Source: Alphaproteobacteria bacterium (GTDB lineage: Bacteria > Pseudomonadota > Alphaproteobacteria > Rs-D84). Taken from it: DNA of 64,000 nucleotides. The translations under genes and the position numbers were made by a program. Positions 22,559-59,987 of the stretch are shown here, piece after piece (the stretch's first letter is position 1; each line of letters starts with the position of its first letter). The stretch spans positions 3,886-67,885 of the forward strand of contig JAVBUT010000006.1 of the NCBI GenBank assembly GCA_031555055.1, written 5' to 3'. The notes under the pieces are model-generated. The model worked only from the letters and a program-made list of their open reading frames with translations, did not search any database and was not told where the DNA came from.

Positions 22559-22892
22559 CGCCAATTTTCACCGAAGCGAAGCAAGGGCTGAAAATTGAGC
22601 GTCACGGCGTAGCGCAGCGAAGACGGATGGTAGACACATTTTTATTGCGAGTATGGCGGAATTGGTAGACGCGCTGCCTTGAGGTGGCAGTGGAGCAATC
22701 CATAGGAGTTCGAGTCTCCTTACTCGCACCATATTTATTCATACATCTATGTTATCGGGATTTTATCCATCGCCGTCATACCGGCGAACGCCGGTAACCA
22801 GCAGTATGAAATTTAGTTTTAATAATACTGGACCCCGGCCTACGCCGGGGCGCTCAATTTTCAGCCCTCGCTACGCTCGGTGAAAATTGGCG
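22559..22892. mobile_element. insert bounded by inverted 42/43-nt hairpin repeats and carrying the intact tRNA-Leu
   Basis: CGCCAATTTTCACCGAAGCGAAGCAAGGGCTGAAAATTGAGCG (22559-22601) matches the reverse complement of 22851-22892 with 1 indel and 2 mismatches. Each arm is itself a CAATTTTCA/TGAAAATTG hairpin. Confidence 0.5.
22647..22731 (+). tRNA. tRNA-Leu (anticodon GAG), class II with long variable arm, encoded CCA
   Basis: Hand fold: GCGAGTA/TACTCGC acceptor, GCG-GAATTGGTAGA-CGC D arm, CTGCC-TTGAGGT-GGCAG anticodon arm, AGGAG-TTCGAGT-CTCCT T arm, then A-CCA. Confidence 0.93.
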
Positions 22893-53689: not shown

Positions 53690-53794
53690 TCTATCCACTT
53701 TCCCCCTTTTTCATAAAAATCAAGACATTTATTTAATGGCGCGGCGGCCGGATACGCTTTTTTCACACCCTGATTTATGATAAAATACATGGCT

Positions 53795-53816
53795 GTAGGG
53801 GCGCATATTTGCGCCC
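53795..53816. repeat. REP GTAGGGGCGCATATTTGCGCCC immediately upstream of ccrM
   Basis: Identical to the REP at 31628-31649. It creates the spurious N-terminal extension MIKYMAVGAHICAQ. Confidence 0.8.
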
Positions 53817-53827
53817 AAAGAGAGAGA

Positions 53828-54928
53828 ATGCAAAAATATCTGAATAAAATCTTGGCCGGCGATTGTATTGAACGTATGCGCGAACTGCCGGATGCGTCGG
53901 TTGACGCTGTTTTTGCTGATTCCCCATATAATTTGCAACTTGGGGACAAAACGCTGTATCGCCCAGAAGACCAGACCGCTGCACGCGCAGTGCGCGATTC
54001 TTGGGATTCTTTCGCGTCCAACGCCGAATATGATAATTTCAGTCGCGAATGGATGGCCGAATGCAAGCGTGTGCTGAAACCGGACGGCGCAATGTGGATC
54101 ATCGGCAGTTATCATAATATATTCCGCCTGGGGGCGATTATGCAGGACCTGGGGTTTTGGATTTTGAACGATATTGTTTGGGTAAAAACGAATCCTATGC
54201 CGAATTTCCGCGGGACACGGTTTACAAATGCGCACGAAACACTGATTTGGGCGACGCCGAAAAAAACCGGCAAATATACTTTCAATTACGAAACGATGAA
54301 AAAAATCAACGGTGGCAAGCAGATGCGATCCGATTGGGACATCGACATATGCCTGGGCCGGGAACGGATCAAGGGCAATTCCGGCAAATCATTGCACAAT
54401 ACGCAAAAACCGCTGGACCTGTTGCATCGCGTGATTTTGGCTTCGACCAAGCCTGGCGACATAATACTGGACCCGTTTATGGGATCGGGCACGACGGCCG
54501 CAGCCGCCAAAGAACTGGGCCGCAATTTCATCGGATTCGAACGTGATGAATCGTACGTCGCCGCCGCGCGCGCGCGCGTTGATTCTGTGATTCCGGTTGA
54601 TCTGACGGGCATTGAAGTCGCCGCACCAAAACGTGATGAAATCCGCGTTTCGTTTGCAGAATTGATTGACGGCGGCCTGCTCTATCCGGGCCAGACATTG
54701 GTCAGTCCGCGCGGCGAACGCGTCATGATCACGCGCGACGCCCAGCTGACGCATACATTGCACGGCAAGGCGTCGATCCATGTCATGGCTGCAAAACTGC
54801 AGCGCAGTGTCAGCTTTAACGGCTGGGATTATTGGTCGGCGGAAAAAAAAGATGGGAATCTGGTCCCGATCGATGAACTGCGCAAATACGTCCGCAGCGT
54901 GAAACAAGACATCAAAAAAGCGGCATAA
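53828..54928 (+). CDS. ccrM: CcrM-type (beta-class) N6-adenine DNA methyltransferase
   Basis: Start MQKYLNKILAGDCIERM at 53828 (upstream residues are read through a REP). DSPYNL (motif IV) precedes DPFMGSGTTAAAA (motif I). About 80-aa C-terminal domain, as in CcrM. Confidence 0.9.
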   Translation: MQKYLNKILAGDCIERMRELPDASVDAVFADSPYNLQLGDKTLYRPEDQTAARAVRDSWDSFASNAEYDNFSREWMAECKRVLKPDGAMWIIGSYHNIFRLGAIMQDLGFWILNDIVWVKTNPMPNFRGTRFTNAHETLIWATPKKTGKYTFNYETMKKINGGKQMRSDWDIDICLGRERIKGNSGKSLHNTQKPLDLLHRVILASTKPGDIILDPFMGSGTTAAAAKELGRNFIGFERDESYVAAARARVDSVIPVDLTGIEVAAPKRDEIRVSFAELIDGGLLYPGQTLVSPRGERVMITRDAQLTHTLHGKASIHVMAAKLQRSVSFNGWDYWSAEKKDGNLVPIDELRKYVRSVKQDIKKAA

Positions 54929-54934
54929 GCTTTT

Positions 54935-55669
54935 TTAGTTAAAAAAAGAAAATATATACGGTGCAACGTCATCGGTCATCGCAAAATCCGCACATGCACC
55001 AGGACAGTCCTTTCCACAGTTGCTAAGTGTTCCAATAATCGGTGCCAATATCCAGTAACCGTTTGTCGCATCTATTTTTCTTTTTGCACGGCACCAACAA
55101 TACCCCCCACCCCAGCTATATGTTGGCGTACCTATGCGTGTCTCTGGATCGTCCATCTGATTTTTAGTACTGCACATTGCCTGGATATAATAGTACGGAT
55201 AAACATTTGCCTGTCTCAGCCTTTCCTCTAGATCGGTCGAAATTGTCACCGAAGTTATAGTATAGTTCGGATGCAATGCATTAAATTCTGACGAGTATGT
55301 ATAAATCTCTGAATAATCATCTATGGCCAATTGCAAATACGGATCACCATCGGATAAAGACACCAAAGAATCAATCGTACCGATCACAGCATTCGTGTCG
55401 ACAACCTGTTGCGACGCCAGCGCATTGTCGCAATATCTGACCGCCGGTAATTCCGAATTCAGCTCTTGATTAACAACATCGACCGTGCACAACAGATACT
55501 TCATATTGGCGGCCTGGGTTTGCAAAGGATTGGCAATATTTATATTTACCGAATGCTTTTGATTTATGTAATCGTGAATGTATTTAACATTGGCGATCTG
55601 CGCGGCAATCACGTCCGACGAAACACAAAGCACTCCAAAAAACACTGATAAACAAAACCTTGTCATCAT
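54935..55669 (-). CDS. secreted protein with CWCRAKRK motif, paralog A
   Basis: Signal peptide. N-terminal QIANVKYIHDYINQKHSVNINIANPLQTQAANMKYLLC. C-terminal GGGYCWCRAKRK...CGKDCPGAC. Confidence 0.7.
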   Translation of the reverse strand: MMTRFCLSVFFGVLCVSSDVIAAQIANVKYIHDYINQKHSVNINIANPLQTQAANMKYLLCTVDVVNQELNSELPAVRYCDNALASQQVVDTNAVIGTIDSLVSLSDGDPYLQLAIDDYSEIYTYSSEFNALHPNYTITSVTISTDLEERLRQANVYPYYYIQAMCSTKNQMDDPETRIGTPTYSWGGGYCWCRAKRKIDATNGYWILAPIIGTLSNCGKDCPGACADFAMTDDVAPYIFSFFN

Positions 55670-55693
55670 TGTTGTTCATCCTTTTTAAAACCG

Positions 55694-56443
55694 TTATGGA
55701 TTAATCCATGGTTCGAAAACCGCAATCATAAAATCCTGATTCGTTGTCACAGCGTTTACGCATACCGTACCGCAATTTTTTGCACACGCCGTGGAATCAG
55801 GTGCATTAAGATTGTACGAATATATCCAATCACTGTTCTGGGCGTTTGCTTTTCTTTTTGCCCTGCACCAACAAAATGTTCCTTGGCCAAAAGACTCCGA
55901 AAGACCCGGTTCCCCATAGCTTCCAAACTCATTGGTGCATATTGATTGTACATAATAGCCGGGATATATACCAGCGAACTCCAAGTCCTCTTCTTTCACC
56001 GGATCAATTGTTACCGTCTGGGATAAATAGGTCGGATGCAATGCGTTAAATTCTGACGAATACGTATAAACACCCGGATAATCTGCCAACGCCAAGTGCA
56101 AATACGGATCACCACTGCCGGACAACGATACCAAAGAATCAATCGCGCCAACCACTGCGGTCGTATCAACAGCCTGTTGCAACGCCAGCGCATGGTCGCA
56201 ATATCTGACTGTCGGTGGCGCACCATTCAGTTCTTGGTTCACAAGATCAACCATGCACAACAGGTATTTCATATTGGCGGCCTGGGTTTGCAAAGGATTG
56301 GCGATATTTATATTTACCGAATGCTTTTGATTTATGTAATCGTGAATGTATTTAACATTTGCGATCTGTCCGGCGCCCGCGTTTATCGAAACACAAAGCA
56401 CCCCGCAAACAATCAACAGGCAAACTATTCTTGGCATTGTCAT
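55694..56443 (-). CDS. secreted protein with CWCRAKRK motif, paralog B
   Basis: Same N-terminal block, nearly identical at the DNA level. GTFCWCRAKRK...CAKNCGTVC. Confidence 0.7.
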   Translation of the reverse strand: MTMPRIVCLLIVCGVLCVSINAGAGQIANVKYIHDYINQKHSVNINIANPLQTQAANMKYLLCMVDLVNQELNGAPPTVRYCDHALALQQAVDTTAVVGAIDSLVSLSGSGDPYLHLALADYPGVYTYSSEFNALHPTYLSQTVTIDPVKEEDLEFAGIYPGYYVQSICTNEFGSYGEPGLSESFGQGTFCWCRAKRKANAQNSDWIYSYNLNAPDSTACAKNCGTVCVNAVTTNQDFMIAVFEPWINP

Positions 56444-56452
56444 CTAAACCTT

Positions 56453-57436
56453 TTAAGGTGTCGGCAAAGTCGGCGTCGGCACATTCAAAATTCCAACCAT
56501 TGAGTAAGTACCGGCAGTTGTCAAAACAGCGTTTGCTGGGGTCGGACCCGTTTCTCCCTGGGGGCCTTGCGAACCAGTGGCGCCTGTTTCACCTTGGATG
56601 CCCTGGATACCTTGCTCGCCCTGTTCACCCCTTTCACCTTGGATACCTTGTTCACCCGGGATACCTTGCGGACCGACAGCACCAGTGTCACCTTTTGGAC
56701 CCGCGGGACCTGTTGCACCAGCAGGACCAACTTCACCCTGGGGGCCGGTCAAACCAATCGGCCCGATCGGTCCAACTGGTCCTATTTCACCTTGTGGACC
56801 CTGGGGACCTACCTCACCTTGTTCACCCCTTTCTCCTTGGATACCTTGCTCGCCTGGGATACCTTGCGGACCGACAGCGCCTGTTTCACCCTGGGGGCCG
56901 GCTATACCTATACCCTGGGGACCAGCCGGTCCAGTAGCACCATCCAAACCAGCAGGACCAATTTCACCCTGGGGACCCGCTGGACCGGTCAGACCAATAG
57001 GGCCCTGGGGGCCAACAGGACCAATTTCGCCCTGGGGACCCGCTGGACCGACAGTATCAGAGACCATACCTTCGACTTCACTTTTCGTATAAACATCGGC
57101 GATATTCGCTTTGTTTGTATCCATTACATCTATACGGTTATCCAGCCGGCCTTCAACATTATCGACCCGCGTATTCGTCGCGTATTGTGACAAGTCCGCG
57201 CCTGTACCGCCTGTGGTGGAAATTCCTTTGCCACGCGAATTCAAAAACGATGTTGTGCTTAACCTGTTGGTTGCACTTGCGACATACGCCCCTGTGGGTT
57301 TTGGCACTGTACTGATCGTCACAGATTGTACTTTTGGCATGGGTATAGACCCACGAACTGTTGGTGTCGCACCAATCGCGTCCAGCGCAAAGAATATCGT
57401 AATTAGCACCGCAGTACTGCCTGATATTTTTCTCAT
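56453..57436 (-). CDS. collagen-like triple-helix repeat protein (secreted)
   Basis: Signal peptide. Tail-fibre-like N-terminal region ([18 protein letters not shown]). About 56 Gly-X-Y triplets ([29 protein letters not shown]...). Short C-terminal non-collagen segment. Confidence 0.85.
56543..57049. repeat. Gly-X-Y coding repeat region with a long internal duplication
   Basis: [24 protein letters not shown] occurs twice. All alternative-frame ORFs here are artefacts of the repeat. Confidence 0.85.
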
Positions 57437-57467
57437 GATTCTCTCTCCTTGTTTCTCTCATATGGCG

Positions 57468-58205
57468 TTAGAATTTCAGTCTGGCGCCGACCATCAAGCT
57501 GTTTGTCCAAATATTGCTGACATCGTTTATAAAGATATCGCCGGTAACGCCACGCGAATGGCTTTGTCCGCCGGTATACATAAGGCGATATTGAATATGT
57601 ATGGAAAAATTATTGCTTATGTCTTGTTCCAGACCTGCGATCAGTTGGGTTGCGAATGTTGTTTCCGTCTGACTGTCGTTACCATCGTTTGTAAACACCG
57701 GCCCGGCGTCTGTCACCTCTACAAACGCCAGCCCCAGCCCCGCGCCGCCATAAATGCTGGTCGCGCCCCATCTGGCAAGCGTATAAATCGCATTCACAGT
57801 CAAGTATTGCGACGACAGCGAAAACGTCGCGCCGGAATCATGGTCATCAAACGTTCCTGTTTCCCCATAGTTTAATTCGGCACGCCATTTTGGCGCAAAG
57901 CGGTATCCCAAAGACATGTCAAAGCCAATTTGCGGAACAAGTGAAAAAGACTCTGTCTCGCTGTCAAACGGATCGCTGGCCAATGAATATTGATTGCTGA
58001 AACTGGCCATGTTATAGGCAAACCGTATCCCCAGGTAAAAATCATAAAGATTTTTTATACTGTTTTCTGAAATAAATTTTGCATTTTGATAATCAGGATA
58101 ATACGGCTCGTCCGCCCCATATGCCACATCCACCGGATACGCGACCGCACCTGTAACAGAAACCGATATCACCATCGCGACGATCGACAACGTTGTTTTT
58201 TTCAT
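57468..58205 (-). CDS. outer-membrane beta-barrel protein (first gene of the collagen-like operon)
   Basis: Signal peptide MKKTTLSIVAMVISVSVTGAVA. Beta strands. C-terminal MVGARLKF. Confidence 0.75.
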   Translation of the reverse strand: MKKTTLSIVAMVISVSVTGAVAYPVDVAYGADEPYYPDYQNAKFISENSIKNLYDFYLGIRFAYNMASFSNQYSLASDPFDSETESFSLVPQIGFDMSLGYRFAPKWRAELNYGETGTFDDHDSGATFSLSSQYLTVNAIYTLARWGATSIYGGAGLGLAFVEVTDAGPVFTNDGNDSQTETTFATQLIAGLEQDISNNFSIHIQYRLMYTGGQSHSRGVTGDIFINDVSNIWTNSLMVGARLKF

Positions 58206-58499
58206 AAACGCCCCCTTTATTGGCTTGATAAAAAATCACCAAACGATTCGTTTTTATAACAATACATGCGGCCCATTGCCACATATCAAAACTTGAACCG
58301 TTTTTTATTTATATTCAGTCGCAACAAGAAATCCGTTTTGGATTTCGCCTTGCGTTTTTTAAACCGGGCGCATATTTCAGTGAAAACGATTTATACAGTT
58401 TTCAAATTTCGCCCTGTGTAATACGTATGGTATTTTATCATAATTTTTCATCATGGCCTAGCATTTTATTCCCACAAAAAATCCAGGAAATAAAAAAAA

Positions 58500-58568
58500 G
58501 GGCGTATGCAATACGTCCCCACAAATTCGATTCACGAAAAAAAAGGGCGAATAATAATTCGCCCCTAC
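58500..58568. repeat. REP pair with the conserved linker AAATTCGATTCACGAAAAAAAA
   Basis: GGGCGTATGCAATACGTCCCC and GGGCGAATAATAATTCGCCCCTAC. The linker resembles 37992-38013. Confidence 0.75.
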
Positions 58569-58574
58569 GATTGA

Positions 58575-59987
58575 TTAATGAGTCGTCATCTTGTCCAACG
58601 TTTTCTTGTTGATTTTGACCGGATATTCGCGCATCAAATAAGAATTATAGTCATCCATGATTTCACGGTTGGCCATCTTTTCCAATTCCGCGCGCAATGC
58701 CTTTTGTTTGGCGGCATCGGCTTTTGGTGCGATTTCCTTTTTGACGCTTAAGACATAAAACGCATCACTGGACGGCACGATCGTACTTGTGCCAATAGTG
58801 TTCGCAAAGGCCGCGACCAAGACATCATTCGGCGCACCGGACGCACGCGATACCGTCGCGGACTTCGCCGACTTTAAGACTGTTCCCGCCTTTAAATCAA
58901 CCAGCAGTTCATTCGCACGAACATACGCGTGTTTTTTCTGTTCTTCGCGTTTCCAGCCCGCAACCAATTTGTCTTTGACAGAATTAAATTCCGCCGTATG
59001 GGCCGCATTTATATTATCGACGCGCAAAATCACAAAGCCCTGTTTGGTTTCGATGATTTCGGATTCCATGCCCGCGTCCATATTGAATATCTTGGACAAG
59101 ATCACATCGTTGATAATCGTATCAACCGGACGGTTGTCGCGCGCGAACGCCGGTAAAGACACGAATTTTGCCTTTAACCGATCGGCTGTTTTAGCCATGG
59201 ATTCGCCTGCGATTATATCATCTTCGATCTGTTGCGCTTTTTTATATCCGGCGTCATAAGTATCCGGCGCATCCATTTTTGCCGGCACCAGAACATACGA
59301 TACGGTCCGTGTTTCGGCGACGGTTTTCGGATTCTTTGCATAGAATTCTTTCAGCTGTGCCTCGGTCGGATTACCAGCCTTGAAATCTTCGAATTTGACA
59401 GTCGAATATTCGATCGCACGTTCGCCATACCGGGCATTGTACGCCGCATTAACCGTAAAATTCGGTACAGTTACCGGCATCGACATCGCCCCCAATGTAT
59501 AGCCGCGCAATATCGTTCCGCGCAGATATTCCGCAAACTGGTTTTCTGTAAATCCGGATTGGGATAAAATATAGCCGAAACGGAAAGGAGAAAATTCGCC
59601 GCCTTCGGAAAACTCCGGAAAAGTTTTGATTTCCGCGGCGACGCGTTTATCCGTCACCACAAAGCCCATGTCGTGCGCATGATTTCTGATCATGACGTCA
59701 TTGATCATGTCGGACAATACCTTGCCGTAAAATTGGTTTGCGAACACAGGATCGGTATAGACCTGTTTTTGTTGTTCACGCGACAGTTTCGCCAGCGCGC
59801 GGGATTTTTCCACTGTGAATTCCTTGACCCCGATTTCGGTACCGCCGACCGTTGCGACAACGCTGTCGCGACGCCCGCCGCTGAATATCCAGTCGGCAAC
59901 GCCCCATCCGACGAACGAAAAGATCAGCACGCCCATCAGAATTTTGGCGACCGGCTTGTTTGACACATCACGTAAATATTCTAGCAT
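58575..59987 (-). CDS. ppiD: PpiD/SurA-like periplasmic chaperone (parvulin-type PPIase D)
   Basis: Start MLEYLRDVSNKPVAKILMGVLIFSFVGWG at 59987 with AAAGGTGGA RBS. N-terminal TM plus SurA-N-like domain. Divergent from tpiA. Confidence 0.8.
   Translation of the reverse strand: MLEYLRDVSNKPVAKILMGVLIFSFVGWGVADWIFSGGRRDSVVATVGGTEIGVKEFTVEKSRALAKLSREQQKQVYTDPVFANQFYGKVLSDMINDVMIRNHAHDMGFVVTDKRVAAEIKTFPEFSEGGEFSPFRFGYILSQSGFTENQFAEYLRGTILRGYTLGAMSMPVTVPNFTVNAAYNARYGERAIEYSTVKFEDFKAGNPTEAQLKEFYAKNPKTVAETRTVSYVLVPAKMDAPDTYDAGYKKAQQIEDDIIAGESMAKTADRLKAKFVSLPAFARDNRPVDTIINDVILSKIFNMDAGMESEIIETKQGFVILRVDNINAAHTAEFNSVKDKLVAGWKREEQKKHAYVRANELLVDLKAGTVLKSAKSATVSRASGAPNDVLVAAFANTIGTSTIVPSSDAFYVLSVKKEIAPKADAAKQKALRAELEKMANREIMDDYNSYLMREYPVKINKKTLDKMTTH

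Follow-up and report, generated by a model that had tools for sequence, protein, structure and literature searches.

A candidate surface fibre with separately encoded collagen stalk and heads in an alphaproteobacterium of the Rs-D84 lineage

The stretch of DNA analysed here, hereafter the window, comprises 64,000 nt of the genome of Alphaproteobacteria bacterium (Rs-D84; assembly GCA_031555055.1, contig JAVBUT010000006.1, positions 3,886-67,885, forward strand). Its minus strand contains a run of four genes encoding an outer membrane (OM) beta-barrel, a collagen-like protein and two paralogous secreted proteins, CW1 and CW2, whose C-terminal domain is named CWCR after the motif CWCRAKRK. We propose, with moderate confidence, that the products of these four genes make up a Sec-exported fibre on the cell surface, built of parts similar to those found in the receptor-binding proteins (RBPs) that phages carry and split over separate polypeptides, with the collagen-like protein as the stalk and CW1 and CW2 as the heads. 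The conserved core is a two-gene stalk/head cassette, in which collagen is one of several stalk fillings; this cassette recurs in many related gut bacteria and was not previously described.

Stalk/head cassette in the window and in related genomes

The stalk protein of 327 aa (type 'A') is encoded by gene 2 (56453..57436, minus strand; PF01391, E 3e-27). It is followed by gene 3 (55694..56443, minus strand), encoding the head protein CW1 of 249 aa, recognised from the list of open reading frames (ORFs), profile search and an AlphaFold2 (AF2) model, and by gene 4 (54935..55669, minus strand), encoding the head protein CW2 of 244 aa, identified as a CW1 paralog by sequence comparison. Only ~26 residues remain after the collagen region of the stalk protein, in which Pfam finds only PF01391. 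This C-terminal tail (56456..56533, minus strand), delimited with a tail profile, carries a neck-like motif and is the proposed head-docking site. The motif AGxYxxxGxLxVPTPxLP, within a tail that reads ...QT(M/L)AGxYTVSGxLxVPTPPLP in the loci of relatives, lies at the extreme C-terminus of A proteins.

Loci of relatives were fetched from GTDB genomes and metagenomes. Their sources were metagenome-assembled genomes (MAGs) of termite gut named 'Alphaproteobacteria bacterium', one MAG from the gut of a wild mouse, and assemblies of gut type in ENA. The tail profile detected 39 ORFs in all fetched DNA, and the motif was located 0-8 residues from the stop in every one of them. A gene for a protein with the N-terminal domain of CW1 and CW2 (the N-module of ~85 aa, which forms the mature N-terminus of type 'B' proteins) was found directly after the A gene in 35/39 cases. 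The window contains the same arrangement, with the tail at the C-terminus of the stalk protein, the CW1 gene 9 nt further on and the N-module from residue 26. Two tandem cassettes of a collagen-type A gene and a B gene are present in the termite-gut contig L021, and three A-B pairs, in which similar tails pair with similar N-modules, are present in L001/L014. In the close relative L003 (ccrM 87% identical), the end of a collagen gene, a single CWCR gene and a convergent ccrM gene follow one another; given this single CWCR gene, the two heads of the window represent a recent duplication.

Stalk and head are joined in one chain in the MAG protein P0062 (MDR0449193.1, 'collagen-like protein [Rickettsiales bacterium]'), in which collagen and fibre repeats are combined with a CWCR domain at the C-terminus. 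The protein has a contiguous repeat, '...SGNYHDLNNLPAIPSVAGLATEAYVDVAI', that looks like an A tail running on into the N-terminus of a B protein, so that this collagen-CWCR chain supports both the assignment of stalk and head and their head-to-tail docking in the split version. No natural A-B fusion was found among 152 proteins retrieved by word-index and profile searches and analysed here. In two further loci (L010:1377-2222 and L011:8841-9869, both minus strand), the N-module genes have a divergent neighbour encoding a secreted fibre protein that contains 'KATTLAGYGITDAYTK' repeats and has Cys in its C-terminal end; proteins of this type also occur downstream of the collagen genes of L048 and L050.

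The A proteins are secreted, have lengths of 66-753 aa and are usually encoded directly upstream of an N-module gene. Their middle part is highly variable: it is absent (mature protein of ~45 residues), represented by tail-fibre-like 'QYPSAKAV' repeats, or consists of collagen. The minimal A protein has the layout IASxxYV helix - VDT - QTxAGxYTVSGxLxV - PTPPLP. In a search against all PDB sequences, the tail profile A7 matched residues 34-57 of BppL, the RBP of the lactococcal phages TP901-1 (E 4e-4) and Tuc2009 (E 1e-3). According to this match to the linker and neck of BppL, the minimal A protein looks like a headless stem and neck. The window stalk protein alone had no match to BppL_N in Pfam. 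A precomputed DUF445 label on one A protein of L001 was absent from every scan performed here and was disregarded.

The N-module was delimited in CW1 at residues 26-105 (56129..56368, minus strand) by the AF2 model, hhalign and the family alignment, and in CW2 at ~55361-55600 (minus strand) by paralog comparison. Identity between CW1 and CW2 reaches 98% in residues 26-66 and falls to 42% beyond residue 112; synonymous differences between them are also fewer in the N-terminal block (5/40 codons, against 20/54). A near-identical N-terminal block combined with divergent heads is expected if two different heads fit one stalk. Within the window, the motif AN[VM]KY is confined to CW1 and CW2. Only five relatives were obtained by word-index search, two of which share just the first ~100 residues and differ in their C-termini, and an exhaustive profile search yielded 328 cluster representatives (50% identity clusters) at E <= 1e-3.

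The N-module is present in 139 of the 152 analysed proteins, with lengths of 80-1981 aa, and its start lies no further than residue 40 in 133/139, right behind the signal peptide; long N-terminal extensions among the 152 proteins represent mis-called starts. The C-terminal part is a WGDG/leucine-rich-repeat (LRR) head in 81/139, and other N-module proteins end in Cys-rich Ephrin_rec_like repeats, PKD-like domains, Listeria-Bacteroides repeats and other sequences. The N-module is a widespread domain, probably an adaptor, and not a part of the head. In the AF2 model of CW1, which has a mean predicted local distance difference test (pLDDT) value of 78 and values of 85-96 in the N-module, this domain consists of three units of a short bridge and a helix, starting at I27-A28-N29, A55-A56-N57 and A91-V92-D93, with the helix-cap repeats IANVKYIH, AANMKYLL and AVDTTAVV. 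Homology of repeats 1 and 2 was detected by hhalign (E 8e-6). Of the 152 proteins, 41 have both Cys63 and Cys82 of CW1 (56255-56257 and 56198-56200), 110 have neither and 1 is mixed; this covariation agrees with the predicted fold and speaks for a lineage-specific disulfide within the module.

Barrel, collagen region and CWCR domain in their genomic context

Gene 1 (57468..58205, minus strand; ORF list) encodes a protein of 245 aa that matches PF13505 (OMP_b-brl) with E 1.8e-14 and 54.7 bits, at a gathering cut-off of 28.7, and PF01389 with E 4e-5 in Pfam. Its C-terminus ...RLKF is a terminal aromatic beta-signal, and the protein has the features of OmpA/Omp25-like small barrels; judging from its sequence, it probably has 8 strands. 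An AF2 barrel model built from four sequences reached a pLDDT of 35 and was not usable, and a barrel profile gave nothing significant against PDB sequences, the best real OM protein being OprH (E 0.14).

Three non-self homologs of the barrel, P0154, P0155 and P0156, are 65, 49 and 42% identical to it. A collagen-like gene lies directly 3' of the barrel gene in all three (gaps of 28, 48 or 0 nt), and the barrel gene is the first of its cluster in 3/3 related genomes, with an intergenic gap of ~130 to 540 nt before it. The stalk N-domain (residues ~24-129; 57050..57367, minus strand), delimited from the homologs encoded after barrels and from a match to phrog_6320, comprises an Arg/Ser/Thr-rich segment bearing a motif, a Gly-rich linker and a tail-fibre-like coiled segment. 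Its homologs after barrel genes were found in L047 (E 2e-36), L050 (E 1e-8) and L048 (E 1e-5) in a search of a small local database; in L047 this is an ortholog fragment of the stalk, 50% identical over residues 1-130. A word-index search with stalk residues 1-129 found nothing, and the homologs were reached only through barrel neighbours. L047 and L003 originate from one sample and have no overlap at the DNA level; they may belong to a single locus. In L048 and L050, the collagen proteins end differently (...ETGEY(T/R)E), and the next genes encode other fibre proteins and not N-module proteins.

The three barrel-collagen adjacencies and the 35 tail-N-module adjacencies thus represent two separable linkages, one between the barrel and the stalk N-domain and the other between the stalk tail and the N-module, and the window stalk protein bears both. 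Operon conservation in relatives was one of the checks proposed in the first-pass annotation of this DNA, which scattered genes in related genomes would have refuted; both linkages, together with the order collagen end, CWCR gene and ccrM in L003, show the genes to be linked. That annotation had read the locus as an anchor, a stalk and a head; stalk and head have gained support from the 35/39 linkage and from P0062, while the barrel anchor and the surface site are still inferred.

Two observations concern the position of the barrel gene in other clusters. In L050:8001-12765 (GCA_031554955.1, JAVBUW010000001.1), a barrel of the window type heads a different fibre cluster. Besides a collagen protein whose repeats read 'LSAYEIAVANGFVGTE.EWLETLKG', this cluster encodes a fibre protein of 361 aa, likewise with '...YTE' at its end, a fibre-like protein of 154 aa and one of 336 aa that is rich in Gly. 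In the termite-gut contig L021, a small secreted Cys-containing protein of 90-102 aa is encoded before each collagen-like A gene (L021:206-514 and L021:3661-3933), in the position held by the barrel in the window.

The collagen triple-helix region (56540..57049, minus strand) contains, by a regex scan, 16 Gly-X-Y triplets at 56906-57049 and 40 at 56540-56899, with one interruption. If fully helical, it would have a length of ~48 nm (168 residues x 0.286 nm). The gene contains an internal duplication of 129 nt with 80% identity (56583-56711 and 56781-56909). The Gly-X-Y periodicity also produces long spurious ORFs on the plus strand across 56359-57190.

The CWCR head domain of CW1 (residues ~118-249; 55697..56092, minus strand), delimited by the AF2 model and by its recurrence, contains six Cys residues and the motif CWCRAKRK; the domain of CW2 was located at ~54938-55324 (minus strand) by paralog comparison. 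In the window, CWCR occurs once per paralog and once more in a plus-strand frame (57359-57370), in a spurious ORF over the collagen gene. The domain is modelled as a 3-stranded sheet with C-terminal helices, with pLDDT of ~58-94 in the core and below 50 in the loop 179-185. It is an independent module: it ends proteins of unrelated architecture, including those without an N-module, and is also arrayed in tandem, with 3-5 copies, in proteins as long as 6218 aa. In two of the giant proteins, P0053 (4750 aa) and P0122 (6218 aa), BspA-like LRR blocks that bear a '(D/N)WGDG' module occur together with Listeria-Bacteroides repeats and with CWC domains in tandem arrays of 4-5; by eye, their C-terminal end is endonuclease-I-like.

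Neither the N-module nor the CWCR domain matched Pfam, NCBIfam or PDB sequences (profile A3, zero matches at E <= 10 in PDB), and a Foldseek search with the CW1 model against PDB and BFVD gave nothing below E 0.07, with TM-scores below 0.25. Matches of the paralogs to DUF3316 and US22 (Pfam) and to ArlH and GldH (NCBIfam) were far under the cut-offs and were regarded as noise. A match of the CWCR proteins to a characterised family, named in the first-pass annotation as a result that would speak against it, was thus not obtained in Pfam, NCBIfam, PDB or BFVD.

The gaps between the four genes are 31, 9 and 24 nt according to the ORF list, and AAGG is located 6-9 nt 5' of the CW1 start. No strong terminator-like site was found on their strand between or within the four genes, the best candidates having <=5 stem pairs. 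Spacing and conservation suggest that the genes form an operon. The 370-nt intergenic region 5' of the barrel gene (58206..58575, minus strand) is its leader with a putative promoter region, recognised from a hairpin and from the gap itself; the terminator-like hairpin, at 58566-58543, has 10 stem pairs followed by a T-run and closes the upstream ppiD-like gene. An Rfam scan gave no match in the operon or leader, and the sole Rfam match of the window is a tRNA gene at 22647-22728 (plus strand). Judged by eye, signal-peptide-like N-termini are present on all four proteins.

The flanking genes in the ORF list are nrdR, ccrM, ppiD, tpiA and a lytic transglycosylase gene; these are housekeeping genes of an alphaproteobacterial chromosome and not parts of a mobile element. 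The gene for the CcrM-like N6-adenine methyltransferase (53777-54928, plus strand) is convergent with CW2, with 6 nt between the gene ends. The ccrM homolog of L003, which encodes N6_N4_Mtase and RAMA domains, is likewise convergent on the CWCR gene.

The remaining descriptive statements of the first-pass annotation agree with these data: four tightly spaced minus-strand genes; a 245-aa OM barrel ending in RLKF, now with a PF13505 match; a 327-aa protein with ~56 Gly-X-Y triplets (16 + 40 = 56) and a tail-fibre-like N-terminal part, of which residues 79-130 fall inside the phrog_6320 match; and two paralogs of ~245 aa with a near-identical N-terminal block and one CWCRAKRK motif each.

Proposed assembly and alternative explanations

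In the proposed fibre, the stalk protein would trimerise via the collagen helix and the neck, and its N-domain would hold the fibre at the OM via the co-encoded barrel. The three neck tails would dock the N-module of one head protein, whose three helix-cap repeats may form a single-chain pseudo-trimer, providing a transition from a threefold stalk to a monomeric head; such a pseudo-trimeric cap would resemble phage gp38 on the tip of the gp37 fibre. The heads would act as adhesins or ligand-binding tips, the two paralogs offering two specificities on one stalk type. Head types found in the family (LRR/WGDG, Ephrin_rec_like, PKD, Listeria-Bacteroides) are typical extracellular domains. In a wider and more tentative scenario, which is possible but in our opinion rather less probable than the fibre itself, gut Alphaproteobacteria domesticated phage RBP parts into a modular Sec-dependent fibre, with a trimeric stem and neck, a collagen extension, a dedicated small OM barrel and a separate monomeric head on an undescribed pseudo-threefold adaptor, the heads (CWCR, LRR, Cys-rich repeats and others) being swapped as whole genes.

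A number of observations weigh against the proposed fibre. Surface location, trimerisation, the A-B contact, a 3:1 stoichiometry and anchoring by the barrel are inferred. The apparently 8-stranded barrel would be too small to serve as a route for export across the OM. Most A-B cassettes have no adjacent barrel, and A proteins with a similar N-terminal motif also occur without a neighbouring barrel, which places the barrel outside the universal core. About one third of the N-module genes have no A gene upstream. The predicted structure is the only support for repeat 3 of the N-module. The likeness to BppL extends over just 24 residues, with a modest E value of 4e-4, and BppL_N (PF18338) was found in two relatives, at the same place, with 19.7-21 bits, under the cut-off of 25.8. 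With the tails of the window and L003 left out of the profile, the window stalk was still the top ORF of the window, at a weak score (E 0.014 among 2,249 ORFs).

Some of these points also fit a different location, in which A and B proteins are linked but remain in the periplasm or within the envelope, or the barrel is an abundant porin-like bystander. The visible signals are Sec signals only, the operon contains no OM translocon, and the barrel is missing beside most cassettes. A helix of 56 triplets, ~48 nm long, would however exceed the width of the periplasm, and barrel-collagen adjacency was retained around all three barrel homologs, of which the most distant is 42% identical, and the barrel gene comes first each time. 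We regard this explanation as unlikely, although it is the most probable of the alternatives.

The combination of a conserved N-terminal part with highly variable C-terminal domains is a hallmark of polymorphic toxins, and some giant CWC-repeat proteins have endonuclease-I-like ends. The B proteins could then be secreted effectors or toxins, with the N-module as a trafficking domain and the A protein as a carrier or chaperone. The C-terminal domains of B proteins are, however, adhesin-like (LRR, PKD, Cys-rich repeats, collagen fusions), the giant nuclease-ended proteins lack the N-module, and A proteins that are fibres of up to 750 aa are awkward as chaperones. No small immunity-like gene was found after the B genes, and in the window the end of the convergent ccrM gene lies 6 nt past CW2. 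This explanation is therefore improbable.

Still more doubtful is a remnant of a prophage or tailocin, with the collagen protein as a tail fibre and the paralogs as assembly chaperones or tip proteins, all of them cytoplasmic. The collagen protein matches many PHROG tail-fibre families (among them phrog_6320, over stalk residues 79-255), the motif of the stalk tail resembles a phage RBP neck, and a fibre gene followed by a tip or chaperone gene is a typical phage order. The PHROG matches are, however, mostly to collagen repeats. Signal peptides are present on all four proteins and on essentially all A and B relatives, and the conserved modules start right after the predicted cleavage site. No other phage genes were found nearby, among flanking genes of housekeeping type, and the locus is syntenic in a relative. 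In IMG/VR, the N-module pattern found no relative and the strict tail pattern gave only two chance matches.

Chance adjacency of four unrelated envelope genes is hardly credible and is contradicted by comparative data: each of the two adjacencies is seen again in many independent contigs, gaps of only 9-31 nt separate the genes, AAGG precedes the CW1 start, and the P0062 chain joins stalk and head.

If the proposed fibre is real, the N-module adaptor and the CWCR head are two new protein domains without a Pfam, PDB or fold match, and the locus represents a new build of bacterial adhesive fibres, in which the RBP-like stem and neck and the head come from separate, translationally coupled genes. 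The family is large, the members found here belonging to uncultured Alphaproteobacteria in gut metagenomes (termite, mouse and human-type), and its proteins would be candidates for the attachment of these bacteria to hosts, protists or other microbes. It would also offer a natural system of trimer-to-monomer symmetry adaptation and possibly a plug-and-play scaffold for protein engineering, with a collagen stalk and exchangeable heads.

Comparison with known systems

A narrow search of the open-access literature, covering RF32 gut genomes and fibres of collagen-like type in Alphaproteobacteria, gave nothing relevant and no description of the cassette or of either domain. The closest likeness was found in BppL of TP901-1, in which residues 17-30 form a three-helix stem, 31-39 the linker, 40-63 a beta-prism neck that is interlaced and trimeric, and 64-163 the head (PMC3893620); BppL heads are exchangeable at the neck junction, both in nature and in chimeras (PMC3893620, review). 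The helix, linker and neck motif of A proteins is similar in sequence to residues 34-57 of BppL of TP901-1 and Tuc2009. Unlike BppL, the A polypeptide stops 0-8 residues past the neck motif, and another gene supplies the head, which bears an adaptor domain of its own. The genes described here are chromosomal, with housekeeping flanks, Sec signals and no relatives in IMG/VR, whereas BppL-type proteins belong to a phage baseplate module; homology to BppL heads or to the BppU and Dit partners is also absent.

The adhesin gp38 is a monomer located on the trimeric gp37 fibre via an N-terminal attachment domain (PMC12032242). In the T-even long tail fibres of T2 and S16, the adhesin gene comes after that of the fibre, much as the head gene comes after the stalk gene in the cassette, and a conserved N-terminal attachment domain is combined with a variable receptor-binding part (PMC12032242). 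In contrast to gp38, CW1 and CW2 have no PHROG, PDB-sequence or Foldseek match and no polyglycine sandwich, and they are cellular, Sec-exported proteins. The resemblance to gp37/gp38 may thus be taken as an analogy only.

In the Bacillus BclA nap, Streptococcus Scl1/2 and Legionella Lcl, a collagen triple-helix stalk likewise projects a globular domain from the cell surface, but a single polypeptide forms both head and stalk, and different anchors are used, namely the exosporium basal layer, an LPXTG motif or T2SS-dependent (type II) secretion, respectively. The stalk of the window lacks the C1q/TNF-like BclA_C domain of the BclA nap in Pfam. With the NCBIfam models NF038330, NF038329 and NF046116 (Scl1/Scl2/Lcl), whose cut-offs are 400, 325 and 500 bits, it scores 128, 122 and 122 bits, and the matches cover the Gly-X-Y region only, which places it outside these families.

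The trimeric autotransporters YadA and BadA share the head-stalk-anchor design and occur in Gram-negative bacteria, including Alphaproteobacteria. They differ in that an N-terminal head and a C-terminal translocator, with 4 strands per chain, are parts of one polypeptide; in the window the order of the parts is the opposite, and the barrel is encoded by a gene of its own. No Pfam match to YadA_anchor was found in any of the four proteins.

Collagen-like surface fibres, phage RBPs with exchangeable heads and fibres with a separate adhesin are all known, and none of them has this composition; each known kind differs in a defining feature, in agreement with the first-pass statement that no such system is known to have been described. 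The same annotation had likened the locus to BclA or to phage fibres, and the comparison speaks against the former and for the latter, the end of the stalk being closest to phage RBPs.

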